DNA from: an uncultured Pseudomonadales bacterium | GTDB lineage: Bacteria > Pseudomonadota > Gammaproteobacteria > Pseudomonadales > Azotimanducaceae | Direction of reading: 5' to 3' | DNA: 64,000 nt | Assembly (NCBI GenBank): GCA_964348085.1 | Contig: CAYGBI010000012.1 | Coordinates: forward strand, 215 to 64,214 | In this document: piece by piece, positions 647 through 57,175 of the stretch | Layout: the number at the start of each line of letters is the position of its first letter | Numbering within the stretch: the first letter of the stretch is position 1 | The notes under the pieces: model-generated | What the model was told of the DNA's origin: nothing | The model's input: the letters and a program-made list of their open reading frames with translations, nothing else | Database searches by the model: none | Made by a program: the position numbers and the translations under genes

Positions 647-1699
647 CTAACAGTCGATGCACACGCCGACCGGTTTGGACTGCATCAGCGAACTGCGACT
701 TCGGCTCCACGACGGAATGAAAGCCGAGTGGCCGCCGGCGTCGCCGCCCGCGACGAGGATGAGAATGTCGCTCGGGTCGAAGCCGCGATGCACATCTTGG
801 GTGCCTTGGCGCTCGTGCTCCCGCGGTACGTACTTCCCCACCCGTCGCATGTCCGAGACCGTTTGCCGCGCACGATCAAAAAGGTAGCGCTGAACGTCGG
901 CTCTCGTCCAACCGGTGCCGGCGACGATGTCCGCATGTTCCGGCGACAGCACCGCCACGGACTGACCGCTGGTAATGCAGCCCAAATTGGCCATTGAATC
1001 CGCCATGCAATCGAGAATCGCCTCCGGCGTATTGCCGCCGTGGTTTTCGACGTTGCCGAACCCGGCGCCGGCGAACACGGTGACGCTGGAGATGTCCTCG
1101 CCGTAGCCGAGTTCCACATGCAGGGGCGGCCACGGGCTGCGTTCCGCCCGTTCGGCGATGCACGAACAATACTTGCCGGGATGGCCTTGGGTGGATTGGT
1201 CGGAAACGCCGGGGATCATCTCGAAGACGTTCAGGATGATGAGACGCATGGCGCGGCCGATGGTGGCGTTGGCGCGGTTGCCCGGGCCGAAGACGTTGCC
1301 GGCGGCGTTCATGCCGATGTCCCGCACCACCGGCCCGGAGACGATCAACAGCGGCGCCGCACCGCCGGTGCTGGCGGTGGAGGCGTGGAAGTTGTAGGCC
1401 GGCTCGTTGGCGGCTTCGAGCGCCGCGACGATGACCGGGAAATACTCCGGCAGGCAGCCCGCCATCACCGCGTTCACCGCCGCGGCCAGCACGCTGCACT
1501 CCAGACCCGTGGCGGGATGGGTGGCCAGCGTCGTTTCCGGCGGACGGCCCTCCATGGCGAGCATCGCCTCGACCCGGGGCGCCTCCGGCGGCACCACGGG
1601 CAGGCCGTCCGTCCAACCCCGTTCGTAACACTCGTCGATCGCCGCGAGGGCGTCGCTGGCCACTGCCACGGTCTTCGCTGAGTTCGGAATGCTGGTCAT
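647..1699 (-). CDS. conserved hypothetical protein (350 aa), co-operonic with the TRAP genes and the UGSC gene
   Basis: Long ORF with coding-like composition, 19 nt downstream of the TRAP large permease and 18 nt upstream of the UGSC gene on the same strand. No family recognised by eye (GWTDGLPVVPPEAPRVEAML N-terminal motif). Confidence 0.7.
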   Translation of the reverse strand: MTSIPNSAKTVAVASDALAAIDECYERGWTDGLPVVPPEAPRVEAMLAMEGRPPETTLATHPATGLECSVLAAAVNAVMAGCLPEYFPVIVAALEAANEPAYNFHASTASTGGAAPLLIVSGPVVRDIGMNAAGNVFGPGNRANATIGRAMRLIILNVFEMIPGVSDQSTQGHPGKYCSCIAERAERSPWPPLHVELGYGEDISSVTVFAGAGFGNVENHGGNTPEAILDCMADSMANLGCITSGQSVAVLSPEHADIVAGTGWTRADVQRYLFDRARQTVSDMRRVGKYVPREHERQGTQDVHRGFDPSDILILVAGGDAGGHSAFIPSWSRSRSSLMQSKPVGVCIDC

Positions 1700-1718
1700 T
1701 GGTATCCGCTCCTTCGAC

Positions 1719-3074
1719 TCATCGAATCCCGTAAGCCTGCCCCGGCAGCCATGTCGCCAGCGCTTGCCAATTGAAGATGATGGCGAGGCCGATGAGCTGA
1801 ATGATGATGAATGGCGTCACGCCCCGGTAAATCACCGGCAAGTCCACGCCCGGCGGCGCGACGCCGCGTAAATAGAACAACGCCCCGCCGACGGGGGGCG
1901 TTAGAAAACTCGTCTGTAAACACACCGCGAACATCACCGTGAACCAGACGGTGTCGAACTCCAGCGCCGCCACCACGGGCGCGACCAGCGGCAAGATTAT
2001 CAGGGTGAGTTCGAGCCAGTCCAAGAAGAACCCCAACAGGAAGGTAGCGATGAGAATGCAGATGATGATGCCGGTTGGGCCGAAGGGCAGGCCCAGCAGC
2101 GTGCGTTTGATGATTTCGTCGCCGCCCAAGCCGCGCAACACCAAGGTGAAGCACACCGCGCCGAGAATGGCGGCGAAGATGAACGCGGTGGTGCGCGAAG
2201 TTTCTTCCACCACCTCCGCCATCACCTTGCGGTTTAGGGAACGCTTGAACGCCGCTAACAGCAGGGCGCCGGCCGCGCCGACGCCGGCGGCCTCGGTGGG
2301 GGTGGCGAGGCCGAAGAAAATGCTGCCGAGCACCGCCAGAATGAGTAGCGCCGCCGGCACTACGGCGAGCGTGAGCTCCCACGCCGCCCGCCAATCCATG
2401 GTTTGCGCTGGGGCGGCCGGCGCACGATCGGGTTTCAGCAAACCGACGCCAAGCAGATATACGATGTACAAGCCGCCGAGCAGCATGCCGGGGAACAACG
2501 CCCCCAAGAACAAGTCGCCGACGCTCATCGCCATGCGGTCCGCCATCACCACCAGCATGATGCTCGGCGGAATGAGAATGCCGAGTGTGCCGACGGCGCA
2601 AACCGTCCCGGATGCCAAGCGCTTGTCGTAGCGGTTGTCGAGCATCGCCGGCAAACCCAGCAGGCCGAGCAGCACCACCGACGCGCCGATAATGCCCGTG
2701 GACGCCGCAAGCAGCACGCCGATGATGGTTACCGCGATGGCGAGGCCGCCGCGCACCGGGCCGAACAGTCGGGCAAAGCCGGTGAGCAGACTGCGGGCGA
2801 TGCCCGAGCGGTCCAACAGCACGCCCATGAAGATGAACATCGGCAGCGCCACCATCACCCAGTTTTCCATCACGTCCCAGATGCGATCGACGCTCATGGA
2901 GGCGTAGAACCAATCGACATTGGTGGGAATAGCGAAATCCACCTCGAAAACGATGGCCAGCACCGTGAACAGCACGGCCAAGCCGCCGAGCACCCAAGCG
3001 ATGGGATAGCCGGTGAACACCAGCGCGATGAAGGTGATGATCATCGTCAGCGCCAAAGCCTCCGACCCGCTCAC
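1719..3074 (-). CDS. TRAP transporter large permease (DctM family)
   Basis: Polytopic membrane protein with DctM-like sequence (MIITFIALVFTGYPIAWVLGG..., ...PPVGGALFYLRGVAP...). The start is either GTG at 3074, overlapping the DctQ stop as GTGA, or ATG at 3044. Confidence 0.9.
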   Translation of the reverse strand: MSGSEALALTMIITFIALVFTGYPIAWVLGGLAVLFTVLAIVFEVDFAIPTNVDWFYASMSVDRIWDVMENWVMVALPMFIFMGVLLDRSGIARSLLTGFARLFGPVRGGLAIAVTIIGVLLAASTGIIGASVVLLGLLGLPAMLDNRYDKRLASGTVCAVGTLGILIPPSIMLVVMADRMAMSVGDLFLGALFPGMLLGGLYIVYLLGVGLLKPDRAPAAPAQTMDWRAAWELTLAVVPAALLILAVLGSIFFGLATPTEAAGVGAAGALLLAAFKRSLNRKVMAEVVEETSRTTAFIFAAILGAVCFTLVLRGLGGDEIIKRTLLGLPFGPTGIIICILIATFLLGFFLDWLELTLIILPLVAPVVAALEFDTVWFTVMFAVCLQTSFLTPPVGGALFYLRGVAPPGVDLPVIYRGVTPFIIIQLIGLAIIFNWQALATWLPGQAYGIR

Positions 3075-13947: not shown

Positions 13948-14763
13948 GTGACCGGTGGCGCTTCGGTAGTGCTCGGCGTCGAATACGACGGCAGCGCATT
14001 CCACGGTTTTCAGCGTCAGCGGGACGTGCGCAGCGTGCAAGAGGATTTGGAGACCGCGATCTCCCGCGTCGCCGACGAGCCGGTGCGCATCGTCGCCGCC
14101 GGACGCACGGATGCCGGCGTGCATGCCACGCAACAGGTGGTGAGTTTCGTTACGGACGCCCGCCGGTCGCCGGAATCTTGGCGACGCGGCGTGTCGAGTT
14201 TGACTAGGGATGCGCTCGGCGTCGTCTGGGCCAAGACGCTGGATGCTCCCTTCCATGCCCGTTTCGATGCGCTGTGGCGACACTACGTATACATTTTCAG
14301 CGACGCGCCGGTGCGACCCATCATCCATCGCCACTTGCTCGCTTGGTCGCACGCGCCGGCGGCAAGGGGGAGCGGCGCCTTGCTGGACGCGCCGCGCATG
14401 CACCACGCCGCGCAGTGCCTCGTCGGCGAGCACGACTTCTCGTCGTTCCGCGCCGCGGCTTGTCAGTCCAAGTCGCCGTGCCGACGTATCGATTCCATCT
14501 CGGTCAAGCGCGTGCATGGCTACGTGGCAATCGAAGTGATCGCCAACGCGTTCCTGCTGCACATGGTGCGCAATGTCGCCGGGGCGTTGCGCGCGGTGGG
14601 CCTCGGCGAGTCGAGCTTGGACGCGCTGCGGGAACTGTTGCGCCGTCGCGACCGCACGTTGGCGCCGCCGACCGCGCCCGCACACGGCTTGTATCTTGTC
14701 GGCGTGGGTTACCCGGGCTGGCGGCTCCCGCCGCGACCGCCGCCGCTCTTGGCCTGCGGCTAG
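13948..14763 (+). CDS. truA: tRNA pseudouridine(38-40) synthase
   Basis: Contains YDGSAFHGFQRQ and the catalytic GRTDAGVHA motif. Confidence 0.9.
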   Translation: MTGGASVVLGVEYDGSAFHGFQRQRDVRSVQEDLETAISRVADEPVRIVAAGRTDAGVHATQQVVSFVTDARRSPESWRRGVSSLTRDALGVVWAKTLDAPFHARFDALWRHYVYIFSDAPVRPIIHRHLLAWSHAPAARGSGALLDAPRMHHAAQCLVGEHDFSSFRAAACQSKSPCRRIDSISVKRVHGYVAIEVIANAFLLHMVRNVAGALRAVGLGESSLDALRELLRRRDRTLAPPTAPAHGLYLVGVGYPGWRLPPRPPPLLACG

Positions 14764-14848
14764 GAGCCAGTTGAACTTCACAGCTTTTGCCGCCAAGTCC
14801 AACGGACTGGTACGATGCGCGGCTTTCTCGTTCTCGTGGCGTCGGCAG

Positions 14849-21461: not shown

Positions 21462-21592
21462 ACGGCCGCGCCTTGTCGGGCGGGCGCCGGACCGTTGTCG
21501 GTGCGACGCGGACTTTCGCCACGGACTGCGAGAGATGGGGGAGAGGTGGTGCCGATAATCGGCGTGCGCGGCGTTTGGCGTGGGTTCGCGGC

Positions 21593-22042
21593 ATGACGCG
21601 CTTGGTTGCTTCGATGAAGCGCCGCACGCCCTGCGTAGGTGTCTGTTCCACCACCTATGGCGACTTGGTGTGTCGCGGCTGCAAACGCTTCGCGCATGAA
21701 ATCGTCGGCTGGAATGGTTATCGGGAAAGTCAGCGCGAGTTGGTGTGGACGCGGTTGCACACGCTATTGGCGCAGAGCGTGGGCGTATTCCTCGGGGTGG
21801 CCGACGAGCGCGAATTGCGCGCCGTTGCCAAGGCTGCCCGGGTGGCGGATGCCGATGTGCTGCCGGCGGAGGTGCTTGCCTTTCACACCATGCGCTCGTG
21901 TCCGTTGGCGCTTCGCGAACTGGGTTTGGCGAGCCGCTCGGACGCGACGGAGACGCCCGAGGTGGTGCGCATGATCGACCGGGAGTTCTACCTACGCTCG
22001 TGCGCCCATTTCGAGGCGAGCTTCAAGACCCCGGCTGCCTAG
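21593..22042 (+). CDS. DUF1289-domain protein
   Basis: Internal ATG at 21593. The Cys motif CVGVCSTTYGDLVCRGCKRF is characteristic of DUF1289. Confidence 0.65.
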   Translation: MTRLVASMKRRTPCVGVCSTTYGDLVCRGCKRFAHEIVGWNGYRESQRELVWTRLHTLLAQSVGVFLGVADERELRAVAKAARVADADVLPAEVLAFHTMRSCPLALRELGLASRSDATETPEVVRMIDREFYLRSCAHFEASFKTPAA

Positions 22043-22045
22043 GAC

Positions 22046-22249
22046 ATTAGCGTTACGAAAGCTGCTGCCTCCCGGCACCGCCTTCGCCCTAAGCCCAAGC
22101 CGCCTACACGACGGAGATCGGACTTCGCGGTTGACGCCGCCGACGGCCACTAGCGCCACGACAGCCGCTGCCTGCCGGCACCGCCTTTCGCCCCTGCCCA
22201 ACTGCCCTATCACCCCGTCGGACTTCGCGGCTAATACCGCCAAGTCCGA
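22046..22249 (-). repeat. two tandem copies of the CTAG-bounded ~100-bp palindromic repeat family (about 22046..22145 and 22150..22249)
   Basis: Both copies contain GCTGCCT(C/G)CCGGCACCGCCTT(T)CGCCC...GTCGGACTTCGCGG. This is the reverse complement of the core seen at 30797, 32751 and 56165. Confidence 0.8.
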
Positions 22250-22255
22250 TGGATG

Positions 22256-22966
22256 CTACGTCAGCGGGAAGCACTCCAAGGCGGCATCGCCGCGCTGAAG
22301 CCGCAGTCGCCAACCGCAACGGCGCCAATCGCCGAGCACGATACGACGGCCGGCCGCGTGCCGGTGGATGCCGGGCCGATGCGTATGCCCGTGGACCAAG
22401 AGCCTTGCGTCCGCCTCGGCGAGGGACGTTTCCACGGCCGCCGGCGTCACATCCATGATGTTGTCCGCCTTGTTCTCGTTGGCGGCGATGCTCTTGGCGC
22501 GCAACGTCGCCGCGAGGGCGCGCCGAGAAGACAAGGGCGTGGCCAGCACTCCGGCCTGCCACTCGGCGGAGCGAAATAGCGCTCGGGCGCGTTGGTATTC
22601 GGCGTCGCCGGTGCAGTAGGCATCGCCATGCGCGATTAGCACACGCTCGCCGTCGACGTCGATGACGCTGGGGTCCGGCAAGAGCGTGGCGCCGGTGTCG
22701 GCGGCAAAGCGCTCGCCGAACAGGAAGTCGCGGTTGCCGTGCATCACGTAGAGGGCGCAGCGCTCGGCCGCTTGGCGCAATACCTCGCGGGTGGCATCGG
22801 CCACCGCGGCATCGTCGTCGTCGCCGACCCAGACTTCCACCAAGTCTCCCAGTATGTACAGCGCATCGACGGTGGCCGCCTCGCTCGCCAGCATACGTCT
22901 CAGCCCGGCCAAGACGTGCGGGCGCGTCTCGTCAATGTGCAGGTCGGAGATAAAGAGGGCGCTCAT
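22256..22966 (-). CDS. lpxH: UDP-2,3-diacylglucosamine diphosphatase
   Basis: Internal ATG at 22966 (MSALFISDLHID...). Calcineurin-like metallophosphoesterase motifs GDLVEVW, HGNRD and HGHTHRP. Confidence 0.9.
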   Translation of the reverse strand: MSALFISDLHIDETRPHVLAGLRRMLASEAATVDALYILGDLVEVWVGDDDDAAVADATREVLRQAAERCALYVMHGNRDFLFGERFAADTGATLLPDPSVIDVDGERVLIAHGDAYCTGDAEYQRARALFRSAEWQAGVLATPLSSRRALAATLRAKSIAANENKADNIMDVTPAAVETSLAEADARLLVHGHTHRPGIHRHAAGRRIVLGDWRRCGWRLRLQRGDAALECFPLT

Positions 22967-22991
22967 GCACTGGACTCCACGAGTCGTCTGG

Positions 22992-23849
22992 CTAACCGGC
23001 GGCGGCGAGTTCGGCGGCGGCGAGGGTGTTCTCCAACAGCGACGCGCGGGTGACCGGACCGACGCCGCCCGGCACCGGCGTAATCCAGCCGGCGCGCTCG
23101 GCCACCTCTTCGAAGCGCACGTCGCCGCGCAACGACCCGTCGGGCTGCGCGACGATGCCGACGTCGATAACGACGGCGCCGGGTCGCACCCAGTCCGCCC
23201 CCAACAAGCCGGCTTTGCCGGTGGCGGAGACCACGACATCCGCTTGTGCCACGTGTTCGCGGGCGGACTTGGAGAAGCGATGCACCGTGGTCACCGTGCA
23301 GCCGGCGAGCAGCAACTCGAGCCCCATCGGCCGCCCCACATGGTTGGAGGCGCCCACCACCGTAGCGTGCAAGCCGCGCAGGGGAACGCCGGTCGCGGCC
23401 AACAAGGACATCACCGCCTTCGGCGTGCAGGGGCGAATGCTGGGTTCGCGCAACACCAAGCGACCCATGTTGTGTGGATGCACGCCGTCGACGTCTTTCT
23501 TCGGCAGCACGTGCTCGGTCACCCGCAACGCGTCGATATGCGGCGGCAACGGCAGTTGCACCAAGATGCCGTCGAAGCCGGCATCGGCGTTTAGCTCGTC
23601 GATGATCGCGAGGAGTTCCGCTTCGCTGGTTTCGGCCGGCAAGTGACGGACTTTCGCCTTGAGTCCGACCTGCTCGCAGTCCTTGCGCTTGAGGCGCACA
23701 TAGATCAGCGAGCTAGGGTCGTCGCCGACCAGCAACACCGCGAGCCCCGGCGCACGCAGGCCACGCGCGCGCCGGGCGCGTACCTTGGCGGCCAAGTCGC
23801 GGCGGATGGCTCGGGCGATGGCGTTGCCGTCGAGTATTCTGGCGGGCAT
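22992..23849 (-). CDS. folD: bifunctional methylenetetrahydrofolate dehydrogenase / methenyl-THF cyclohydrolase
   Basis: Internal ATG at 23849 ([12 protein letters not shown]...). FolD-like throughout ([33 protein letters not shown]). Confidence 0.95.
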
Positions 23850-24792: not shown

Positions 24793-24873
24793 GACAAGCG
24801 AAATTGCCTAGGGTTGGTGCGCGTGTCAAACAGCCTCACGACGCCTTAGGGCCAGCCACCGGATTGGCAGCCC

Positions 24874-24980
24874 ACCGAGCCGGGGACACCCACCGGCCAT
24901 CGAACCGGGGACACCCACCGGCACCGAGCCGGGGACACCCACCCCGACCGCCACCGAGCCGAGACACCCACCGCCGACGG
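24874..24980. repeat. four imperfect tandem 24-30-bp repeats (core ACCGAGCCGGGGACACCCACC) in a divergent intergenic region
   Basis: Units start at about 24874, 24899, 24923 and 24953. They lie between the TauD start (24792, minus strand) and the acyl-CoA dehydrogenase start (25138, plus strand). Confidence 0.75.
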
Positions 24981-29082: not shown

Positions 29083-29973
29083 ATCAAGATTGAGCCGTGC
29101 GGCGGCGCCTTTGGCGCCGAGATCACCGATGTTGCCTTGAACGACCTGAGCGACGGCGAGTGGCGCATGATCGAGGACGCCTTTCACGCATACGCCGTGC
29201 TGATCTTTCCGGGCGCGAATCTCACCGAGGCGCAACACATCGCTTTCAGCCGCCGGTTCGGTCCGCTCGAGCGCACCCTCTCGCGACGCGCAACGCGGCC
29301 GGAAATCTCGCTGCTCTCCAATGTCGGCAAGGACGGCGAGGTGGCGAAGCCGAACGACCCTTTGGGACTCTTTCTCAAGGGCAATCGATATTGGCATACG
29401 GATTCCTCCTTCAAGAAGGTAGGTGCCAAAGTCTCGCTGCTGCGTGCGGTAGTCGTTCCCGATAGCGGCGGCGACACCGAGTGGGCGGACATGCGCGCCG
29501 CTTGGGACGCGCTCGACGCGGACACGCAGCGGCAACTCGACGGCCGCCAAGCCGTACATTCCTATGCTTGGTCGCAAGGGCGAATCGGCGGCATCGGTGT
29601 GCTTTCCAAACAGGAATTGGACGCCCTGCCGCCGGTAGCGCATCCCTTGGTGCGCACGCATCCGGTCACCGGGCGCAAGAGTCTCTACGTCGGTCGCCAT
29701 GCGTCGCACATTCTTGGCATGGCCGCGGAATCCGGCAGAGCGTTGCTCCAGCGCCTGACGGAAGACGCCTGCCAGCCGCCGCGCATCATCCGGCATCACT
29801 GGCGAGCGGGCGACATCGCCGCGTGGGACAATCGTTGCGTGCTGCACCGTGGCCATCCTTGGCCATTCGAACAGCGACGGGTGATGAGGCGCACGACGGT
29901 GGCTGGCGACGGGAACAACCCTTGGGCCGTCTCCCCCGCCGACGGGCTGCTCGCGGAGACGGCGGATGCTTAG
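29083..29973 (+). CDS. TauD/TfdA family dioxygenase (start codon uncertain)
   Basis: The tracked ORF starts at TTG 29137. The in-frame upstream stretch IKIEPCGGAFGAEITDVAL is typical TauD N-terminal sequence, and GGAGAGAGAG lies just upstream of ATC 29083. The HTD triad motif (YWHTDSSF) is present. Confidence 0.75.
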   Translation: MKIEPCGGAFGAEITDVALNDLSDGEWRMIEDAFHAYAVLIFPGANLTEAQHIAFSRRFGPLERTLSRRATRPEISLLSNVGKDGEVAKPNDPLGLFLKGNRYWHTDSSFKKVGAKVSLLRAVVVPDSGGDTEWADMRAAWDALDADTQRQLDGRQAVHSYAWSQGRIGGIGVLSKQELDALPPVAHPLVRTHPVTGRKSLYVGRHASHILGMAAESGRALLQRLTEDACQPPRIIRHHWRAGDIAAWDNRCVLHRGHPWPFEQRRVMRRTTVAGDGNNPWAVSPADGLLAETADA

Positions 29974-30799
29974 GCGGGCCGGCGGCTACCTGCTGCCGCG
30001 CGACGAAGCGCCGGCGGCGAGTAGGCAATTGGAGCAAGAGGGCTATGCGGTGCTGCGCGGCGTGCTCGCCGAAGACGAGCTGCCGTCCATCCATGCGGAA
30101 ATCACCCGTGTCTACGAGACCATGCCGACCGACGGCCGCGCCCGCGTTCACGACGACGACTTCCGCTACGAAATGTTCAACAAAAGCGCGACTGCACAAC
30201 AGCTCGTCGCACGTCGCGAGATCCTCGACACCATCGAGCCGCTCTTGGGCGAGGACTGCCACATCATCGCCAACACCTGTTGGCGCAACCCCGCCGGCGC
30301 GACGCATCGTCACGGGGGAGGCGGCTGGCATATCGACGCGGGGCCGCACATCCCGCGTCCGCCGGGGGTGGAGTGGCCGGCGGAAATCCCCTACCCGGTG
30401 TTCGCCATCGGCGTACACATCTTCCTCGAAGACTGTTCGCTTGCGTCTGGCCCGACGGCGGTTATTCCGCGTAGTCACAAGAGCGGGCAGCCGCCGCCGG
30501 CGGACCGTCGGGACGACGAAACGCTAACCTGCAACGGCCGGAGCGCCCGACCGTTGGTGGCCGCCGCCGGCGACATCGCATTCTTCGTCTCCGATGTTTG
30601 GCATCGGCGTCTGCCGACCCGGGAGGAAGACGAGGGCCGGTTCTTCCTGCAAGTACACTACGCTCGTCGCGACATCGCGCAGCGCATAAAGCCGACCGCG
30701 GCGGTCAATCACATCGATGCCGACGCCTTGGCGCGCGTGGAATCGGAACGTGAAAGGCGGCTGCTCGGCATTCACCCCCGTGGCTTCTACGACGGCTAG
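29966..30799 (+). CDS. phytanoyl-CoA dioxygenase (PhyH) family protein
   Basis: 277 aa with WHIDAG (HxD) and a distal His (VWHRRLP). Overlaps the upstream TauD stop by 8 nt. Confidence 0.8.
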   Translation: MLRRAGGYLLPRDEAPAASRQLEQEGYAVLRGVLAEDELPSIHAEITRVYETMPTDGRARVHDDDFRYEMFNKSATAQQLVARREILDTIEPLLGEDCHIIANTCWRNPAGATHRHGGGGWHIDAGPHIPRPPGVEWPAEIPYPVFAIGVHIFLEDCSLASGPTAVIPRSHKSGQPPPADRRDDETLTCNGRSARPLVAAAGDIAFFVSDVWHRRLPTREEDEGRFFLQVHYARRDIAQRIKPTAAVNHIDADALARVESERERRLLGIHPRGFYDG

Positions 30800-30905
30800 C
30801 AGTCCGTCGGGCTTGGCAGCGGAAGCCGCGAAGTCCGACGGAGTGCTAGGGCGGCTTGGGCTGGGGCGAAAGGCAGTGTTTCGAGGCAACGGCGCCAAGC
30901 CTAGG
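30797..30905 (+). repeat. CTAG-bounded palindromic repeat, copy 3
   Basis: TAGCAGTCCGTCGGGCTTGGCAGCGGAAGCCGCGAAGTCCGACGGAGTGCTAGGGCGGCTTGGGCTGGGGCGAAAGG... Its first TAG is the stop codon of the PhyH gene, and it ends at CCTAGG. Confidence 0.8.
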
Positions 30906-30916
30906 ACGTAAGACAT

Positions 30917-32113: not shown

Positions 32114-32281
32114 CTGCGCCGACTATTCGGCCCCGCGGTGCCAACTCCCGCCACCGTAGCACCTCGCTCCGTTGACGATAACCGTGCGTCAGAGAGAAGG
32201 GCTGAGCTCGTGTGGAACCACCGAAACGAGGCGTGATCGATGCCTCGCACGTTGGCGCCTCAAGCAACGGTAGCGTTTGCG

Positions 32282-32662
32282 TTACCGTGCAGCGCGCAGC
32301 AGTTCCGCGATCTCGGCCTTGCCTTCCTTCATCGCCTCCGGGTCCGTCAGCGGAATCCGAAATGCCCTCGCGACGGTTTGGGTGGATTGCCAATCGAGTT
32401 CCGCGACGGCTTGAGCGTTGACGCCGTTGTTGTCGGTCGCGTGTACATCTGCGCCGGCGGCAAGCAGCATCTTGGCAATCTCCGCCCGGCCTAGAAGGGC
32501 GGCGAAGATCAGTGGCGTGCTGCCCATGTCGGGATCTCGTGCGTTGGCATCGGCACCCTTGGCGAGGACCACCTTAACGGTAGCGGCATCGTCGCCAATG
32601 ATCGCAAACGCGATTTCTTGGAAGCCAACACCGGGCGAACCGTCGCCGGACCCGCCTAGCAT
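32282..32662 (-). CDS. ankyrin-repeat protein
   Basis: Two to three ANK units (GSTPLIFAALLGRAEIAKMLLAAGADVHATDNNGVNA). The frame stays open upstream of the ATG, so the N-terminus is uncertain. Confidence 0.65.
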   Translation of the reverse strand: MLGGSGDGSPGVGFQEIAFAIIGDDAATVKVVLAKGADANARDPDMGSTPLIFAALLGRAEIAKMLLAAGADVHATDNNGVNAQAVAELDWQSTQTVARAFRIPLTDPEAMKEGKAEIAELLRAAR

Positions 32663-32750
32663 CGCAATGATCCCGGTTCGCTCCGTCTCGCGGTATTCTG
32701 GCCCACGGTCAGTTGCCGCCTGCCGATTCGCGCTGGTCGTACGTCGCCGC

Positions 32751-32832
32751 TAGCAGTCCGACGGAGTGATAGGGCGGCTTGGGTTGGGGCGAAAGGCGGC
32801 GCCGGGAGGCGACGCCTTTCGTGGCGTTAGCG
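32751..32832 (+). repeat. CTAG-bounded palindromic repeat, copy 4 (lacks the 5' hairpin arm)
   Basis: CTAGCAGTCCGACGGAGTGATAGGGCGGCTTGGGTTGGGGCGAAAGGCGGCGCCGGGAGGCGACGCCTTTCGTGGCGTTAGCG. Confidence 0.75.
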
Positions 32833-32846
32833 CACTGCATTGGCTG

Positions 32847-33033
32847 TAGTTCGGCGCCGGTATGAAGCCGAACCCGGCCTGTTCCAGCAACTTCGCCACG
32901 CCAATGGTGACCAAGTCGCCGTACTCCGGCCCGATGATCTGCACGCCGATGGGTAGGCCGCTGGCGTCGGGGCCGGTGGGGATGACGGTGGATGGTAGGT
33001 AGGCGACGCTCGCCAGCCCCGCCCAGAACACTT
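32847..33033 (-). pseudogene. 3' fragment of the amidase gene (duplicate of about 33639..33825)
   Basis: Encodes ...FWAGLASVAYLPSTVIPTGPDASGLPIGVQIIGPEYGDLVTIGVAKLLEQAGFGF..., nearly identical to the C-terminus of the 33632..35077 amidase. About 8 mismatches in about 190 nt by eye. It has no 5' part. Confidence 0.85.
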
Positions 33034-33306
33034 TTGTCCGCCATCAAGACCTACCTCCAGAAAATCGCCGACCCGGCGGACATCGCCTCCACGGCCGGTG
33101 TTTTCTTCACCATCAACCACATCGCCGTGGTCATCATCCCCGCCGTGCTCGGCTACGTCTGGCTCGAATCCCACACGGCAGTGTTCTTGATCGGTGCCGT
33201 GTTCGCGCTGCTGTCGCTTACGATGGCGCAGAACGTGCCGTTGAGCCCGCGGTAGGGCAACGAGACCGTGGTGGGTCTGGCGTTCGGGCGAGCTTGGGCG
33301 GGGTAG
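33034..33306 (+). pseudogene. 3' fragment of the MFS transporter gene (duplicate of about 31840..32114)
   Basis: Encodes AIKTYLQKIADPADIASTAGVFFTINHIAVVIIPAVLGYVWLESHTAVFLIGAVFALLSLTMAQNVP..., matching the MFS C-terminus. About 13 mismatches in about 265 nt by eye. A premature TAG is present and the 5' part is missing. Confidence 0.85.
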
Positions 33307-33325
33307 CGACGAGCGCCGCATGCTC

Positions 33326-33580
33326 CTAACAGCCCCGATCCCTTTCGATCCCGCCGGCTCGGACTCCTGATTGAGAGGAATCCTCCGTTGGTGGCGGGCT
33401 CGTCCACCCAATTGACGGAACCACGACGGCCTCCGGGGCGTTCACATGGGCCTTAACTACGACCACGCCATGTTGTGTCTGTGCCGAGCGACTGGACCAG
33501 TCGACCGTATCGGAAACATGAAAGGAAGTAGCTGCCGTACCCTCCAGAATATAGGAGACGCTGCGTTGCCTATTGGTCAT
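33326..33580 (-). CDS. hypothetical small protein (84 aa)
   Basis: Strong SD (GGAGGAAGG) 4-5 nt upstream of the ATG. It lies 51 nt downstream of the amidase stop on the same strand. No recognisable family. Confidence 0.35.
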   Translation of the reverse strand: MTNRQRSVSYILEGTAATSFHVSDTVDWSSRSAQTQHGVVVVKAHVNAPEAVVVPSIGWTSPPPTEDSSQSGVRAGGIERDRGC

Positions 33581-33631
33581 TCAACCTTCCTCCAACCCTC
33601 GAAGCTGCGTGATGCCCGATCCACTCACCGC

Positions 33632-35077
33632 TCAACCATAGTTCGGCGTCGGTGTGAAGCCGAACCCAGCCTGCTCCAGCAACTTCGCCACGCCAATGGT
33701 GACTAAGTCGCCGTATTCCGGCCCGATGATCTGCACGCCGATGGGCAGGCCGCCGGCGTCGGGGCCGGTGGGGATGACGGTGGATGGTAGGTAGGCGACG
33801 CTCGCCAGCCCCGCCCAGAACACTTGATCGAAGTACGGCTGCTGCTTGTCATTGACCGCTATCGTGCGTTCGCCAAAGGGACCTTGGTCGTGCGGGAACG
33901 CCGAGGTGGCCATGATCGGCGCCAGCACGATGTCGAAACGGTTGAAGAAGTCGTGCCAGCGCCAACGAATGTGCGTTCGCTTTTCGTTGTTTGCGGTCCA
34001 GTCGCGGAAACGCGCCACCTGCGAGCGTTGGATGACGGCGGAAAGGCTCATGTCTTCCGGCGGCAGGTCTTCTACTTGACGCACGATGGTCTGATAGCGG
34101 TCTTCCGGCATCCGCGCGGACATGGTGGCTTGCAGCAGGCACTGATACACGAAGTGGGTGTGCTCCGAATCCACAGGACGAGCCTCGAAATCCACCGTCG
34201 CGCCCATTCCGGAGAGCGCGTCCGCGACCGCATCGACGCGCGCGGATACCGTGGCGTCCACCGGCGCCATCGCGTCGTCGCGCCATACCGCGACCTTGAG
34301 TTCGCCTGCCGTCTTGCGGAGTTCCGGCAGCGCCAGCGCGAGACCCCGGCTGTCGATTTCGTTCGGTCCGGCCATCGCCCGCACCGTCGTTTCAAGGTCC
34401 GACGCCGAGCGTGCCAGTGGACCGATCACGGAGATGTCGGAGGGCGTCAGAACGCCCGGCATGGCGTGGCCCCTCGGCGGCAATAGGTTCCAAGTGGGTT
34501 TGTGGCCGAAGACGCCACAGAAGTGCGCCGGGTTGCGAATGGAGCCGCCGATATCCGAGCCGGTCTCCAAGCCGGTGAGCCCCGCCGCTAGCGCCGCCGC
34601 CGAGCCGCCGGACGAGCCGCCGGGCGTGCGCCGCAAGTGCCACGGATTGTTGGTAGTGCCGTATATCGCGTTGTAGCTCTGGAAGTCCGAGAGCATGAGC
34701 GGCACGTTGGTCTTGCCGAAGATGACGGCGCCGGCGGCTTTTAGGCGGGAGATGGAGAGCGCATCCCTTGCGGCGATGTTGTCCTTGAGCTCGGGCACTC
34801 CCCACGTCGTAGGGGTGCCGGCCACGTCGTAGGACTCCTTCACCGTCATTGGCACGCCGTGCAGCGGTCCCCAATGTTCACCTCGCGCCAGCGCCTCGTC
34901 CGCTTGCCGTGCCCGTGCCATAGCTTCCTCGCGGACCTGCACGATGATGGCGTTGAGGTCCGAGTTGAAGCGGTCCACACGCTCGAAGTAGTACGCCAGC
35001 AGTTCGGCGCTGCTGATGTCCTTGTTTCTGACTCGTCCTGCTAGTTCGCCGGCGCTGGCGAATGCCAAGTCGCCCAC
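33632..35077 (-). CDS. amidase (amidase-signature family)
   Basis: 481 aa with the AS signature GGSSGGSAAALAAG and a catalytic Ser-cisSer-Lys context. Confidence 0.9.
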   Translation of the reverse strand: MGDLAFASAGELAGRVRNKDISSAELLAYYFERVDRFNSDLNAIIVQVREEAMARARQADEALARGEHWGPLHGVPMTVKESYDVAGTPTTWGVPELKDNIAARDALSISRLKAAGAVIFGKTNVPLMLSDFQSYNAIYGTTNNPWHLRRTPGGSSGGSAAALAAGLTGLETGSDIGGSIRNPAHFCGVFGHKPTWNLLPPRGHAMPGVLTPSDISVIGPLARSASDLETTVRAMAGPNEIDSRGLALALPELRKTAGELKVAVWRDDAMAPVDATVSARVDAVADALSGMGATVDFEARPVDSEHTHFVYQCLLQATMSARMPEDRYQTIVRQVEDLPPEDMSLSAVIQRSQVARFRDWTANNEKRTHIRWRWHDFFNRFDIVLAPIMATSAFPHDQGPFGERTIAVNDKQQPYFDQVFWAGLASVAYLPSTVIPTGPDAGGLPIGVQIIGPEYGDLVTIGVAKLLEQAGFGFTPTPNYG

Positions 35078-53272: not shown

Positions 53273-53382
53273 ACTGCAAGCGCCACGAAAGCCGTTGCCT
53301 CTCGGCACCGCCTTCGACTTATTAAGCCCAAGCTGCCCTATCAGGCAAAGTCGGGCTTTGCGGAACGCCGCCAAGTCCGACT
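53273..53382 (-). repeat. CTAG-bounded palindromic repeat, copy 5
   Basis: GCGCCACGAAAGCCGTTGCCTCTCGGCACCGCCTTCGAC...CCCAAGCTGCCCTATCAGG...CGCCGCCAAGTCCGA, immediately after the endonuclease stop (GCTAGCGG). Confidence 0.75.
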
Positions 53383-53412
53383 TGCCGGCCAGCCGTTACT
53401 TCCCTGTCCTGC

Positions 53413-54212: not shown

Positions 54213-55076
54213 ATGCGAGACGTTACCGGCAAGACCGCGTTCATTACCGGCGGGGCTAGCGGCATGGGCTTGGCGATGGCGCGCTCCTTCGCCAAAGCCG
54301 GCATGAAGGTGGTGATCACCGACATCGAACAAGCCGCGCTCGATGCCGTTGAAGCCGAGTTCGAGGCCAGCAATGCCGAGTTCCTAACGCTGCGCTTGGA
54401 CGTCACCGACCGGGAGGGCATGGAGCAAGCGGCCGAGGCTGCCGAAGCGCGGTTCGGCAAAGTGCATGTGGTGTGCAACAACGCAGGCGTCGCCGTCGGC
54501 GGCGCCATCGACCAAATGACGTACAACGATTGGGACTGGGTGACCAGCGTCAACTTGAACGGCGTGGTCAACGGCATCCAAGCGTTTGCGGAGCGCATCA
54601 AGGCGCACGGCGAAGGCGGCCATTTCGTCAACACGGCGTCGATGGCCGGGCACATATCCATCCCCGGTCTTTCGGTCTATACCGCGACGAAGTTCGCCGT
54701 GGTTGGCATCTCCGAAACCATGCGAGCTGATCTCTTGCAGCACAACATCGGCGTCTCGGTGCTCTGCCCGGGCATCGTCAACACCAATATCTTCAGCTCG
54801 GACCGCAACCGCCCCGAAGAACTGCCGGGCACCGACGCCTCCGGTGTGCTGGTTAGCGACTTGCCGGCCGAGGACCAAGCCACCCGCATGGAGGAACTGC
54901 TCGCCGGCGCACTCGACCCGGCCGTCGTGGGCGACATGGTGCTGCATGCCATTCGCGAGGACGAGTTCTACATTTTCACCCACCCGGAACTGGAACTGAT
55001 GACCGACGCGCGCAAGAGCGAGATGGCCGAAGCGTTCGGGCGTTGGCGCGAATATCGGCAGGAGCGGGGCGTCTAA
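54213..55076 (+). CDS. SDR family oxidoreductase
   Basis: TGGASGMG cofactor motif, NNAG, and catalytic YTATK. Confidence 0.9.
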   Translation: MRDVTGKTAFITGGASGMGLAMARSFAKAGMKVVITDIEQAALDAVEAEFEASNAEFLTLRLDVTDREGMEQAAEAAEARFGKVHVVCNNAGVAVGGAIDQMTYNDWDWVTSVNLNGVVNGIQAFAERIKAHGEGGHFVNTASMAGHISIPGLSVYTATKFAVVGISETMRADLLQHNIGVSVLCPGIVNTNIFSSDRNRPEELPGTDASGVLVSDLPAEDQATRMEELLAGALDPAVVGDMVLHAIREDEFYIFTHPELELMTDARKSEMAEAFGRWREYRQERGV

Positions 55077-55117
55077 CGACCAAAGGTCGTGGCATAGGAA
55101 ACGAAGAGGTAGACCAA

Positions 55118-56167
55118 GTGACCGTCTCCCGTCGTATCGCTTGGGTCGCAGCGGGGCTCGCGCTCGTCGTTGTAGCCGCCGTCTGGTTCGTCGTGGGTAG
55201 CCGCACCGGGCAGGATTGGCTGTTCGCCCGGGTCGCCACCGGGGTGTTCAGCAATCCAGCGCCGACCTCGTTCGATGGCCTGCGGGTATTCGTTTGCGGC
55301 TCCGCGTCGCCATTGATCGCGCCGGGCCACGCACAGGCGTGCATCGCGGTCACCGCCGGCGAGGATCTCTACATCGTCGATGCCGGCATGGGTTCCGTCG
55401 GCCCCATGCAATTCGCCGGCGAACCCCTTCAGCACTTGCGCGCCATTTTGGTGACGCACTTCCATTCCGACCATATCACCGGCATCCCGGACTTCAATCT
55501 GAACTCTTGGGTGGCCGGGCGCCGAGCCCCGTTGCGGATTGTCGGTCCTACGGGGGTCGAGCGGTTGGTGGCCGGTTACAACGAAGCGTTCGCTCTCGAT
55601 GCCGGCTATCGCGTCGCCCATCACGGCGCGGAGATGTTGCCGCCGCATTTGGGCGCAATGGTGGCGGAGCCCGTGCAGGAGGGCGTGATCTTGGCACAAG
55701 GCGAACTCACCATCCGGGCGTTTGCGGTGGATCACTCGCCCGTTCAACCGGCGTTCGGCTATCGCTTCGACTATGGCGGCCGTTCCGTGGTCGTCAGTGG
55801 CGACACGGTGGTGACGGAGGGTTTGCGCGAGGCCGCCACGAACGCGGACTTGCTCATGCAGGACGCCCTTTCCTTGCCGATGGTGCAGGCGCTCGAAACC
55901 GCGGCCAAAGCGGCCGGCGCTTCGCGACCCGCGAAGATCATGGCCGACATCCCAAGCTACCACGCGCACGCAGCCGACCTGCCGGCGTTGGCCGAAAGCG
56001 CGAACGTGAACGTGGTTGCGCTCTACCACCTGATACCTATGCCGCGCAACTACTTGATGCGGCAGATTTTCAGGCGCGACCTACCGAGTAACGTCGTGCT
56101 CACCACGGACGGGATGGTGTTCGAACTCCCCCGTGGCACCGAGACGGTGCATATCCGCGAGCCTTAG
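55118..56167 (+). CDS. MBL-fold hydrolase (RNase Z/ElaC-like) with N-terminal TM anchor
   Basis: GTG at 55118 preceded by GAAGAGG. HFHSDH motif, with downstream Asp/His motifs. Confidence 0.75.
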   Translation: MTVSRRIAWVAAGLALVVVAAVWFVVGSRTGQDWLFARVATGVFSNPAPTSFDGLRVFVCGSASPLIAPGHAQACIAVTAGEDLYIVDAGMGSVGPMQFAGEPLQHLRAILVTHFHSDHITGIPDFNLNSWVAGRRAPLRIVGPTGVERLVAGYNEAFALDAGYRVAHHGAEMLPPHLGAMVAEPVQEGVILAQGELTIRAFAVDHSPVQPAFGYRFDYGGRSVVVSGDTVVTEGLREAATNADLLMQDALSLPMVQALETAAKAAGASRPAKIMADIPSYHAHAADLPALAESANVNVVALYHLIPMPRNYLMRQIFRRDLPSNVVLTTDGMVFELPRGTETVHIREP

Positions 56168-56262
56168 CAGTCTGGCGGACTTGGCGGCGTCAGCCGCGAA
56201 GTCCGACGGAGTGCTAGGACGGCTTGGGCTGGGGCGAAAGGCGGCGCCGCCAGACTGCTACT
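56165..56262 (+). repeat. CTAG-bounded palindromic repeat, copy 6 (best preserved)
   Basis: Perfect 14-bp terminal inverted repeats TAGCAGTCTGGCGG / CCGCCAGACTGCTA. There is an internal hairpin GGCGGACTTGGCGGC...GCCGCGAAGTCCGAC. The termini contain the stop codons of both convergent flanking genes. Confidence 0.85.
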
Positions 56263-56884
56263 AGCGGCGGCGAAGCACCGCATCCACTAGGGCAACGGCG
56301 GCCAATAGCGCGAGGAACAGCAGCAGTCTGGCGTCGCTGAAGAAAAGCTGCGGTCGCACCGGGAAGGCGATGGTCTTCTCCAGCGCCGCCATCTTGAACA
56401 CATGCTTCTCTCGGAACACCGGATTCATCGCGATCTCCAACAAGTCCCGGCGGCTGCGATAACGCATGAGGGCGGCGCTCGTCCACTTCTCGGCACCCTC
56501 GATACCTGTCACATCCATCGTGGCGAAGATGGCGGAACCAGCGAACACCGGGTGGCTCGCTCGCTTCGCCAGCTCCGGATACATGTGCGCCATGTACCGG
56601 CTCAATACGGCATCGGCGGACTCATCGGCAGGCACGCCCGGCACCGGCTTTGGCGTGTCCGCCATGTGCAGGACATTCACCATCAGAAACTGACGCCCAT
56701 CGTCCTGCGCCATGAAGCGGCGCAATTCGGCGATCTGTTCCGGGTCTCGACCGGCGCTCCGCATTTGCTCGACGAAAGTGTCGATCTCATCGTCCGACAG
56801 GGGCCCAGAGGTGTTGGTGTACCACCAGAAAAAAGCCCCGTAGAGCAGGGCGCTCGCCAGCCACAACAGCAAACGACCGTTCAT
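56261..56884 (-). CDS. hypothetical membrane protein (N- and C-terminal TM segments)
   Basis: Internal ATG at 56884 (MNGRLLLWLASALLYGAFFWWY...). A central ~150-aa soluble domain of unrecognised family. Confidence 0.6.
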   Translation of the reverse strand: MNGRLLLWLASALLYGAFFWWYTNTSGPLSDDEIDTFVEQMRSAGRDPEQIAELRRFMAQDDGRQFLMVNVLHMADTPKPVPGVPADESADAVLSRYMAHMYPELAKRASHPVFAGSAIFATMDVTGIEGAEKWTSAALMRYRSRRDLLEIAMNPVFREKHVFKMAALEKTIAFPVRPQLFFSDARLLLFLALLAAVALVDAVLRRR

Positions 56885-57175
56885 GGAAGACCTACGCAGT
56901 GTCGTCAACGCTGACCACAGGCGCATTTTGCCAAAGCAAAGTAGAACTGTCCCCTTCTCTCCGAATTGAGAAATGACGCCTTGGTACGGAGCGGCCTCGG
57001 CCTTGAAGCCAGCGCCCATATGGTCCAGTGCCGGACCCCGTTCCAGTGGACCGTCGGTGAAGTCGGACGGGCGGAGCTGGCCTGGCGGATGGGCTGTCGG
57101 AACATGAGTCCTGTTGGCGCTTGAGTAGGACAGGAATACTTCGTCGGCAACAGACAACGGCGAGTGGGGAAACCG

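Follow-up and report, generated by a model that had tools for sequence, protein, structure and literature searches.

Near the right-hand end of the window (the 64,000-nt stretch of DNA analysed here), two convergent genes, 55043..56167 on the plus strand and 56261..57157 on the minus strand, meet at one copy of a dispersed palindromic repeat located at 56162..56264 (+). The family to which this copy belongs has a consensus of 114 nt, GCTAGCAG…GGCGCTAGC, and is small and non-coding. Its unit is laid out as CTAG, hairpin A, (C/A)TAG, a 13-nt tail with hairpin B, and a closing CTAG; hairpin A is a near-perfect palindrome, and every unit pairs it with the second hairpin, B. The copy at 56162..56264 contains a full hairpin A, the 5' half of hairpin B and an inverted version of its own first 12–14 nt. 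The perfect 14-bp inverted termini reported for it earlier are present (TAGCAGTCTGGCGG and CCGCCAGACTGCTA, at 56165–56178 and 56247–56260) and are restricted to this copy; its closest relative (C16:33485–33597) has a normal 3' end. The copy is probably an A-B-A' array that has suffered an internal deletion. Both convergent genes had been described as terminating inside the inverted repeats. This is correct for the left gene, the TAG stop of which (56165..56167, plus strand) lies within the 5' terminus of the element (TTAG), and the orthologues of which finish at the same residue (…EP*). The TAG stop of the right gene (56261..56263, minus strand) is placed directly outside the inverted terminus, and the element's own CTA (56258–56260) forms a second in-frame stop downstream of it.

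All six copies listed in the preliminary description exist, in both orientations, and their shared core and 13-bp hairpin arms are as it described. Searching with nhmmer added a copy made up of hairpin A only at 14757..14814, palindromic and matched on both strands, whose CTAG (14760–14763) includes the TAG stop (14761–14763) of gene 13948..14763. Two minus-strand copies are arranged in tandem. The one at 22043..22142 has a truncated hairpin A, a full hairpin B and a degenerate 3' terminus (CTAA), and the stop of gene 21473..22042 falls 5 nt outside it; the other, at 22147..22258, is a full A+B copy with the 5' tetranucleotide GTAG, whose TAG at 22256–22258 (minus strand) terminates gene 22256..23239 (minus strand). 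At 30794..30905 (+), an A+B copy whose 3' end has diverged or been truncated carries in its 5' CTAG the TAG stop (30797–30799) of gene 29966..30799, and sits between two genes that overlap in relatives (TGATG / ATGGTTGA). The copy at 32752..32834 (+) shows a collapsed hairpin A (CTAGCAGTCCG followed by ACGGAGTG) and then hairpin B, with ORF stops at both termini (TAG at 32751–32753; TAA at 32827–32829, minus strand). The region around it is rearranged and partly duplicated; the duplicated segment (31846–33825) was considered as an internal empty site and was uninformative, the duplication breakpoint being 14 nt from the element. Finally, a diverged A+B copy at 53274..53391 (−) has terminal CTAGs that are not intact, and the nearest gene stops are 8 nt and ~20 nt away.

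Size, distribution and structure of the repeat family

The source genome (G000) is a 3.76-Mb MAG of a sponge-associated gammaproteobacterium and is 97.8% complete. A genome-wide nhmmer search gave 380 matches, which resolved into 303 non-overlapping copies at 254 loci, equal to 0.9% of the sequence. This number is far above chance, and the boundaries are consistent, with conservation beginning and ending sharply at GCTAGC on both sides. Many of the copies are decayed, the median identity to the consensus being 84%. We rejected the notion that A and B are independent modules, since most of the apparently B-only copies retain remnants of a collapsed hairpin A. The element was detected in ~20 of 32 genomes of the genus, at 0 to >300 copies per genome; searches of 16 further families in the order gave no match. 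Copies are most numerous in the source genome and in a relative, G013 (at least 116 scored hits each); G047, G041, G014 and G023 contain 34–55. None of the Rfam 15 covariance models reached its gathering score when applied to the whole window.

Both hairpins are maintained across the genus by compensatory changes: both partners have changed in 17 of 39 pairs and 91.8% of the cells are paired, a level reached in 0 of 500 shuffles. Hairpin B is structurally conserved and displays no similarity to the inverted repeat of the insertion sequence (IS) described below. Counts of G:T against A:C, examined as an indicator of the functional strand, were symmetric for hairpin A, and for hairpin B they were confounded by G:T pairs in the consensus. 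With respect to the neighbouring genes, 36% of the loci are located between convergent genes, compared with 16% of all intergenic regions, and loci are depleted between divergent genes.

Hairpin A and the ends of an IS1182-family insertion sequence

In hairpin A, a 6-nt loop connects two inverted copies of an IS terminal inverted repeat (CAGTCYGTCGGACTTGG), and the hairpin therefore has the form of an "empty" mini-transposon. In the source genome, lone A-arms at the ends of four contigs (C53, C105, C79 and C124) continue as CTAG followed by CAGTCTGTCGGACTTG(G/A)AGACG…; the end of C124 encodes the C-terminus of a transposase on its minus strand (…VEGEWALVMLAYNCRRLNKL*), and on C105 the IS end adjoins the 3' CTAG of an A+B copy. 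The IS1182 remains of this genome comprise ends at contig breaks, a 27-codon C-terminal piece and one deletion derivative (C9), and no intact IS1182 transposase was found in the assembly.

A complete IS is present in G013. It measures 1617 bp, runs from CTAG followed by CAGCCTGTCGGACTTGGGC to GCCCAAGTCCGACAGGCTG followed by ATAG, and possesses a 19-bp inverted repeat. The 5' arm of the A+B copies in G013 has the same sequence as the first 15 nt of the IS. The agreement between the hairpin-A arms and the IS1182-like inverted repeat thus extends over 15/15 nt in G013, and over 17–19 nt in the source genome. The 460-aa ORF of the G013 IS matched the IS1182 model NF033551 with 239.8 bits (E=6e-71), where the curated NCBI cut-off is 270; this score is far above that of any other family, and the Pfam domains DUF772, DDE_Tnp_1 and DDE_Tnp_1_6 were all detected above their cut-offs. 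G013 contains at least 53 matches to IS1182-like transposases. In most members of the genus with 5–55 element copies, no IS1182 relative was detectable.

The two are physically associated in G013, where an A+B element abuts the same IS end in 10 of 21 IS copies, and nine of these 10 composites share a common internal CTGG junction and have differing outer flanks. Direct 4-bp duplications were observed around the IS alone (GTAG/GTAG) and around the element+IS composite (CTAC/CTAC and CTGG/CTGG), with CTAG/CTAG duplications in five further cases; CTAG is therefore the duplicated target, as the CTAG-type preference proposed earlier had anticipated. Solo copies in the source genome also have CTAG-like tetranucleotides at both ends, and those with matching non-CTAG tetranucleotides exceed chance only weakly (8 observed, 3.2 expected). 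At the 3' end of the A+B unit, similarity to the IS inverted repeat stops at CTAGC. The inverted-repeat feature of a MITE is accordingly present in module A and absent from the dispersed A+B unit as a whole, which leaves unexplained how a standard two-ended DDE reaction would act on the solo unit.

Based on the shared ends, the composites and the duplications, we consider the element to be a non-autonomous, MITE-like unit tied to an IS1182-family (IS5-superfamily DDE) insertion sequence, with a probability of about 0.78. Of the earlier designation "REP/MITE-like", it is the MITE-like part that we retain, with the hairpin-A arms representing the terminal inverted repeat of an IS1182-family element. 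The transposase inserts at CTAG-like tetranucleotides and duplicates 4 bp, as G013 shows both for the IS alone and for the composite, in which the 5' arm of hairpin A acts as the outer left end. Solo A+B copies would most likely be remnants left after a composite had lost its IS part; alternatively, they could have been mobilised in trans. Tandem duplication may then enlarge local arrays, and collapse of the palindrome may often remove hairpin A. The same model predicts that full IS copies in the source lineage would be 1.6-kb IS1182 elements with CAGTCTGTCGGACTTGG ends, some of them abutting A+B.

Stop codons and CTAG sites

The preliminary description stated that every copy lies at a gene stop and that the element supplies the stop codons. 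Six termini in the window do coincide with stops (14761–14763, 22256–22258 on the minus strand, 30797–30799, 32751–32753, 32827–32829 on the minus strand, and 56165–56167), and the copies then listed at 22046 and 53273 do not. Genome-wide, the terminal TAG or TAA is the predicted stop at 73 of 254 loci (29%), which is only slightly above the 22% expected from random hits on non-coding CTAGs. A C precedes TAG in 77% of the element-borne stops, compared with 33% genome-wide. Far more stops fall on the 5' end of the element than on the 3' end (54 vs. 22, p=0.0003). An origin of the 3' tetranucleotide as an inherited internal junction accounts for this excess only loosely.

The notion that the element supplies the stops mostly failed in orthologue comparisons, in which element-free orthologues stop at the same codon. 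The stop position is the same in 13 of 13 orthologues of gene 29966..30799 and in six of eight orthologues of gene 55043..56167, and a filled site in G013 agreed with its empty relatives in 5/5 cases. At this last site, 3' of a gene ending …WAMP*, the element is present in G013, the site is empty in G017, G041, G047, G014 and G023, and the right junction is not alignable. The closest relatives available for the source genome share ~74% nucleotide identity (genomes of the genus) or 76% protein identity (metagenome contigs); none of the filled/empty orthologous pairs compared had both junctions alignable, and between G017 and G041 the intergenic DNA at the gene 55043 orthologue could not be aligned. 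From these sequence comparisons, it appears that the TAG stops mostly pre-exist insertion of the element. The possible exception is the 30797 locus, where most relatives have a TGA overlapping the ATG of the next gene, and the element-bearing genome has TAG; here, insertion of the element may have brought in the TAG.

In the source genome, CTAG shows a three-fold depletion. Insertions within genes would be purged by selection, leaving as tolerated targets the intergenic CTAGs and those that contain a TAG stop; at the latter, the 4-bp duplication would regenerate the TAG and the C-terminus of the protein would be unaltered. The depletion of CTAG, the selection against genic insertions and the regeneration of TAG would together be the reason why ~29% of the loci have a terminus exactly on a pre-existing stop.

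Alternative explanations

A RAYT (Y1 HUH) partner, by which the repeats would be REPs or REPINs, or an IS200/IS605-type palindrome-associated element inserted 3' of CTAG, was the partner suggested by the preliminary description. The two different subterminal hairpins, the lack of an inverted repeat spanning the whole unit and the fixed tetranucleotide at both junctions are features that such an element would share, and a single-copy RAYT (NF047646, 89.9 bits) occurs in the element-bearing clade of G013, G017, G041, G014, G047 and G023. Against this, neither Y1_Tnp (PF01797) nor TnpB, searched also by its zinc ribbon, was matched in the source genome with its ~300 copies, and several element-bearing genomes have no RAYT. 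The palindrome that flanks the RAYT of G013 is another one, 21 nt long (GGGAAGGCAGAACGCCTTCCC) and absent from the source genome, and no match to the element model lies within 1.5 kb of that RAYT; moreover, 4-bp direct duplications are not a feature of HUH transposition. We regard this reading as largely refuted and its probability as minimal. Scarcely more probable is a MITE mobilised by a co-resident IS630/Tc1-mariner-type IS, with duplication of TA within the CTAG target. IS630-type elements are abundant where the element is (29 DDE_3 hits in G013, and at least 19 right ends in the source genome, where contig ends truncate every copy and the comparison was made by right ends) and all are flanked by C-TA-G; 9 of the 19 ends in the source genome lie exactly in CTAGs of the element (p=0.009 vs. 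non-coding CTAGs). Their terminal repeats (GTGTCCCGCACTAGAAATGG in the source genome; GTGTAGTGTCC… and GTAGTTCGTT… in G013), however, resemble neither terminus of the element, the junctions GTAG/GTAG and CTAC/CTAC represent a duplication of 4 bp rather than of TA, and G047, G041, G014 and G023 gave no DDE_3 hit in spite of their element copies. Both systems target CTAG, which explains their co-location. Among other insertion sequences of the source genome, an IS5-like element (L069 1310–2491, inverted repeat GGGAAAGTCTGATCAAG, CTAG duplication) has ends unlike those of the element, and an ISAs1-like element (C87) and a single-copy IS110 (C13) are unrelated to it.

It is also unlikely, if less so, that the repeats are primarily functional elements of the host, such as 3'-end RNA hairpins, terminators, mRNA stabilisers or BIME-like protein-binding sites, with spread being secondary and the IS merely landing on them. 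The compensatory changes in both hairpins, the preference for convergent over divergent gene pairs, the lack of transposon-end similarity in hairpin B and the preferential landing of two IS families in element CTAGs would all fit such a role. However, orientation is unbiased relative to transcription (50 vs. 38 in co-directional spacers, p=0.24), a check that had been proposed earlier; no T-run follows the hairpins, and no Rfam family was matched. Copy number varies widely among genomes of one genus and many copies are decayed, and the enrichment at 3' ends is expected for any mobile repeat under selection against promoter disruption. The covarying stems of hairpin B are not required by the transposon model alone. 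A tentative extension, which we still consider improbable, is that A+B is a portable IS1182 end-cassette shed at CTAG/TAG-stop sites, with hairpin B kept by selection for a function, as its covarying stems would suggest. At gene ends, hairpin B might serve to insulate transcripts or to terminate them, making insertion at stop codons harmless, or it might be a structured landing pad that recruits the CTAG-targeting IS1182 and IS630 elements. If so, the family would amount to a "safe harbour" at stop codons that reinforces itself.

Returning to the element as a MITE-like unit linked to an IS1182-family IS, the repeats are ~300 copies of a small non-coding mobile element, ordinary selfish DNA with an unusual, lopsided two-hairpin build. 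Together with its partner insertion sequences, the family is responsible for ~1% of this symbiont genome and for many contig breaks; its recognition explains the fragmented assemblies of the genus, prevents false ORF extensions through the repeats and accounts for many TAG stops that lie in a conserved motif. Where the 4-bp target is palindromic and includes a stop codon, a mobile element can land exactly on gene ends with the proteins unaltered, and an asymmetric terminal cassette could be carried and shed by an insertion sequence.

Comparison with known repeat systems

Correia elements of Neisseria and RUP of Streptococcus pneumoniae are abundant, small, palindromic, non-autonomous intergenic elements with a short TA-containing target, often located at gene ends; they have matching inverted repeats at both ends and duplicate TA, and RUP is attributed to IS630-Spn1. 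The element resembles them in being small, palindromic, non-autonomous and intergenic, and in its TA-containing target and frequent location at gene ends. It differs from them in that its ends are not those of IS630 and its informative junctions are 4-bp duplications. With REP, BIME and REPIN sequences, it shares the character of hairpin-forming intergenic repeats that are often found between convergent genes, the occurrence of mosaics and tandem arrays, and a conserved tetranucleotide at the foot of the hairpin. Unlike these, its unit is 114 nt rather than 20–40 nt, the source genome has no RAYT, its hairpin-A arms match the inverted repeat of a DDE IS, and direct target duplications flank the element+IS composite.

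In the literature on MITEs associated with CTAG or stop codons, the one precedent found was MITEPsy1 of Pseudomonas syringae, a 100-nt, IS5-derived element with 18-nt inverted repeats that stems from ISPsy2 and targets CTAG (or YTAA) with duplication of 4 bp (PMC3189936). Like MITEPsy1, the present element is ~100 nt, non-coding and dispersed; in hairpin A it has end sequences in common with a resident DDE insertion sequence, and it probably targets CTAG with a 4-bp duplication. Unlike MITEPsy1, its parent belongs to the IS1182 family and not to IS5 proper, and its copies number ~300 rather than a handful. The unit is asymmetric: both of its inverted-repeat copies lie side by side, as hairpin A, at one end, and there is none at the hairpin-B end. 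An element of this MITE-like kind is already known, and the surprise is a modest one.

Copies, boundaries and folding of the repeat

The six copies of the palindromic repeat in the preliminary description were all found where it had placed them, in both orientations and with a core common to all, and a seventh in the window, at positions 14757–14814, consists only of hairpin A, the palindromic part. A genome-wide profile scan for more copies, built on those of the window, gave 357 matches in the 3.76-Mb assembly of the same genome (G000), or 380 with a refined profile; the matches comprise 303 non-overlapping copies at 254 loci, amounting to 34.6 kb (0.92% of the genome), with sharp GCTAGC edges. 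The consensus, GCTAGCAGTCCGTCGGACTTGGCGGCGTCAGCCGCGAAGTCCGACGGAGTGATAGGGCGGCTTGGGCTGGGGCGAAAGGCGGCGCCGAGAGGCGACGGCTTTCGTGGCGCTAGC, comes from 121 full-length copies that were aligned together with their 40-nt flanks; conservation starts and stops abruptly at GCTAGC on each side. Identity to the consensus has a median of 84% among full-length copies and reaches at least 90% in 45 of 174. The terminal tetranucleotide is CTAG at 52% of the 5′ ends and 32% of the 3′ ends, the remainder being mostly one-letter variants, and frequent decay of these terminal CTAGs to CCAG or CTGG was observed in G000. No Rfam family matched across the whole window.

The 114-nt unit folds as two strong hairpins, namely hairpin A (unit positions 2–55), a near-perfect palindrome bordered by CTAG and (C/A)TAG, and, after a 13-nt tail, hairpin B (about 72–106), which runs up to the 3′ CTAG. 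Classification by model coverage gave 212 A+B, 65 "B-only" and 21 "A-only" copies; because most "B-only" copies keep a hairpin A in collapsed form (CTAGCAGTCCG abutting ACGGAGTG at window position 32752 is one such case), A+B is the unit, and its palindrome is often lost. Arrays are mostly head-to-tail, one CTAG being common to neighbouring units, with a few tail-to-tail pairs. Adjacent units within arrays carry the same private variants, so local duplication accounts for at least part of array growth. The perfect 14-bp inverted termini described for the copy at 56165 are real but unique to that copy; its nearest relative, on contig C16, has an ordinary 3′ end, and the 56165 copy looks like an A-B-A′ array with its middle lost. 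With 41 copies drawn from 15 genomes, 91.8% of the cells were paired and 17 of 39 pairs had changed on both sides, values attained by 0 of 500 shuffles, while slid controls paired at only 33–49%. This covariation, together with the pairing relative to the controls, indicates that both hairpins are under structural constraint, acting on either DNA or RNA.

Of the 32 genomes of the genus, 21 gave covariance-model matches to the element at E ≤ 0.001, five or more each in 18 genomes, and 11 gave none. G000 and G013, a closed genome, each have at least 116 matches, and the other carriers have 5–55. A BLAST search of 16 other families of the order gave no element match.

Other repeated sequence was noted in the window. 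Between 31846 and 33825 the DNA is rearranged: 3′ fragments of an MFS gene (31846–32114 and 33039–33307, 95% identical) and of an amidase gene (32847–33033 and 33639–33825, 96%) are duplicated, the cores between the duplicated fragments are non-homologous, and the frame of the amidase fragment reads into the repeat element. A 24–25-nt unit, CCACCGAGCCGGGGACACCCACCGG, occurs in three tandem copies at 24872–24945.

A probable partner insertion sequence of the IS1182 family

Several unpaired hairpin-A arms lie at contig ends of G000 (C53, C105, C79 and C124), where they run into a common sequence, CTAG followed by CAGTCTGTCGGACTTG(G/A)AGACG…. The minus strand of the C124 end codes for a C-terminal transposase motif of IS5/IS1182 type, C9 carries a deletion derivative of the IS without an ORF, and on C105 an A+B copy has its 3′ CTAG immediately next to the IS end. 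In G013 the coding part of the contig-end sequence recurs at least 23 times, and a complete IS of 1617 bp there (segment L077, 2029–3645) is bounded by perfect inverted repeats of 19 bp, CAGCCTGTCGGACTTGGGC, whose first 15 nt match exactly the 5′ arm of the A+B elements in the same genome. Its 460-aa protein contains DUF772, DDE_Tnp_1 and DDE_Tnp_1_6 domains, and its best match is IS1182 (NF033551; 239.8 bits, below the curated cut-off of 270). Since the sequence at arm and IS end is CAGTC(C/T)GTCGG in G000 and CAGCCTGTCGG in G013, the two co-vary between the genomes; the arms of hairpin A and the ends of the IS1182-family IS have their sequence in common. IS1182-like matches number at least 53 in G013, with one apparently intact gene in G047, one with an in-frame TGA in G002, and fragments in G017, G041 and G007; the transposase search found no match in the other genomes, G000 included. 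G000 probably still harbours, or harboured until recently, active copies of the IS that are missing from its assembly. A second sequence with the same arm (CAGTCTGTCGGACTTAGGGGG…) was observed in G000 at C44:31181–31548, C47:1–60 and C57:1–60, and may be another element with the same terminal repeat; on C44 an ORF comes after the arm, and its N-terminus resembles that of a DUF1156-type methyltransferase.

Among 21 copies of the IS in G013, 10 have an A+B element next to one and the same end, always in one orientation. A CTGG internal junction is common to nine of the 10 composites, which differ in their outer flanks; element and IS have therefore moved together, the 5′ arm of A acting as the left end. 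Where the flanks were non-palindromic and hence informative, outer-left and right flanks formed direct 4-bp repeats, GTAG/GTAG for the IS alone and CTAC/CTAC and CTGG/CTGG for composites, and five more copies are flanked by CTAG/CTAG. Such repeats fit the duplication of 4 bp at a CTAG-like target and do not fit a duplication of TA. At the opposite end of several IS copies there is also an inverted A+B (CCAG, then the reverse complement of B), an arrangement that would lead to the tail-to-tail pairs of G000. Solo A+B units most likely arise by loss of the IS part of a composite, leaving a CTAG-bounded cassette; alternatively, the B end could be a cryptic transposase substrate.

Other transposases considered

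The RAYT (IS200/IS605-like) transposase suggested as a possible partner did not materialize: no Y1/RAYT gene and no TnpB gene was found in G000. The G013 clade has a single-copy RAYT (NF047646, above cut-off; segment L085, G013:C1:1210370–1213600, ORF 1321..2232 on the minus strand, between two carboxylase-subunit genes), but it is flanked by a different palindrome, which is absent from G000, and the element model finds nothing adjacent. Two copies of this 21-nt palindrome, GGGAAGGCAGAACGCCTTCCC, which is part of a distinct REP system in that clade, precede the gene. IS630-type elements (DDE_3) are numerous and invariably have C-TA-G flanks; in G000 at least 19 right ends were assembled, all flanked by cTA|G, nine of the 19 lying exactly in element CTAGs. 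Every G000 copy is interrupted by a contig end with its left end unassembled (for example C12:64319–65146, just past the right end of the window; C64:20871–; C17:60077–; and C12:1–222, just left of the window). As a partner, IS630 was rejected on two grounds: in both G000 and G013 its terminal repeats bear no relation to the ends of the element, and its distribution in the genus does not track the element. An IS5-like element (DUF772 + DDE_Tnp_1) with CTAG duplication was likewise set aside, its ends being unrelated. It lies at 1310–2491 of segment L069 (contig C66) and 1267–2484 of L068 (C3), with the inverted repeat GGGAAAGTCTGATCAAG and flanks CTAG/CTAG and CTAA/CTAA, respectively, and is a third CTAG/YTAR-targeting IS in G000.

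Relation to stop codons

Genes of G000 were predicted with our own crude codon-usage gene finder, resulting in 3048 genes that cover 88% of the genome and end in TGA (1538), TAG (1014) or TAA (496). Of the predicted stops, 33% are thus TAG, 50% TGA and 16% TAA, in a genome of 64% G+C; CTAG occurs 4224 times, a three-fold deficit against the roughly 12,300 occurrences that the base composition predicts. Element loci lie between convergent genes in 36% of cases, compared with 16% of all intergenic regions, and divergent spacers are depleted. No orientation bias was seen relative to transcription (50 vs 38).

Some termini do coincide with stops, as had been described, but not those of every copy: a terminus falls on a stop at 73 of 254 loci (29%). 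Predicted stops concentrate at exactly two model positions, the 5′ TAG (54) and the opposite-strand 3′ CTA (22). Outside elements, 2784 CTAGs of G000 are coding, 885 intergenic and 256 on stops; elements landing at random in non-coding CTAGs would sit on a stop in 22% of cases (observed 29%, p = 0.02). TAG stops are preceded by C in 77% of cases when borne by an element and in 33% across the genome, which makes CTAG, and not TAG alone, the target. Stops are 2.5 times as frequent at the 5′ end as at the 3′ end, possibly because many 3′ tetranucleotides were inherited as internal junctions, like those of the composites in G013.

The further claim that the element supplies stop codons was examined in orthologues. 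For gene 55043..56167, six of eight relatives' proteins end in …EP at the identical residue; for 29966..30799, all 13 end in …GFYDG at the identical residue, with TGA in 10 and TAG in three; and for 22256..23239 (minus strand) the stop is at the same position or within one residue in nine of 13. A site that is filled in G013 is empty in five relatives, whose stop, TAG or TAA, falls at the same codon; orthologues of 13948..14763 have C-termini too variable for comparison. Because most orthologue stops occupy the same positions, the element sits on pre-existing stop positions and the proteins are unchanged. What survives of the claim concerns the 30797 locus only, where insertion may have brought the TAG triplet: in most relatives and two metagenome contigs the stop overlaps the next gene's start (TGATG or ATGGTTGA) with no CTAG, whereas in G000 the element parts the two genes and the stop is TAG. 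The association with stops is a by-product of target sequence and selection, not a stop-donating device.

Two observations were made beside these sites. When window 30797–30916 is compared with segments L106–L118, L147 and L148, the downstream gene, an MFS gene, has a new start region (MVLIPERW…) in G000, and G020 appears to retain a short remnant of B after the TAG of its 29966..30799 orthologue. Adjoining the filled-site copy, two more dispersed G013 repeat families (segment L073, G013:C1:4836000–4855999, about 6159–6316 and 7985–8120) are about 135–160 nt long, with copies 83–87% identical in several genomes of the clade.

Comparison with known elements

The repeat is a real, abundant MITE-like element of the IS5/IS1182 superfamily that targets CTAG. 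The MITE-like nature and CTAG preference first suggested are upheld by the hairpin-A arms, which match the ends of an IS1182-family IS, and by the 4-bp CTAG-type duplications around that IS and the composites in G013. As far as could be found, the family has not been described previously, and the asymmetric architecture of its A+B unit is uncommon. The class itself is known. The direct repeats around the IS and the composites in G013 fit duplication of a 4-bp, CTAG-like target as it occurs in the IS5 superfamily and in MITEPsy1 (PMC3189936).
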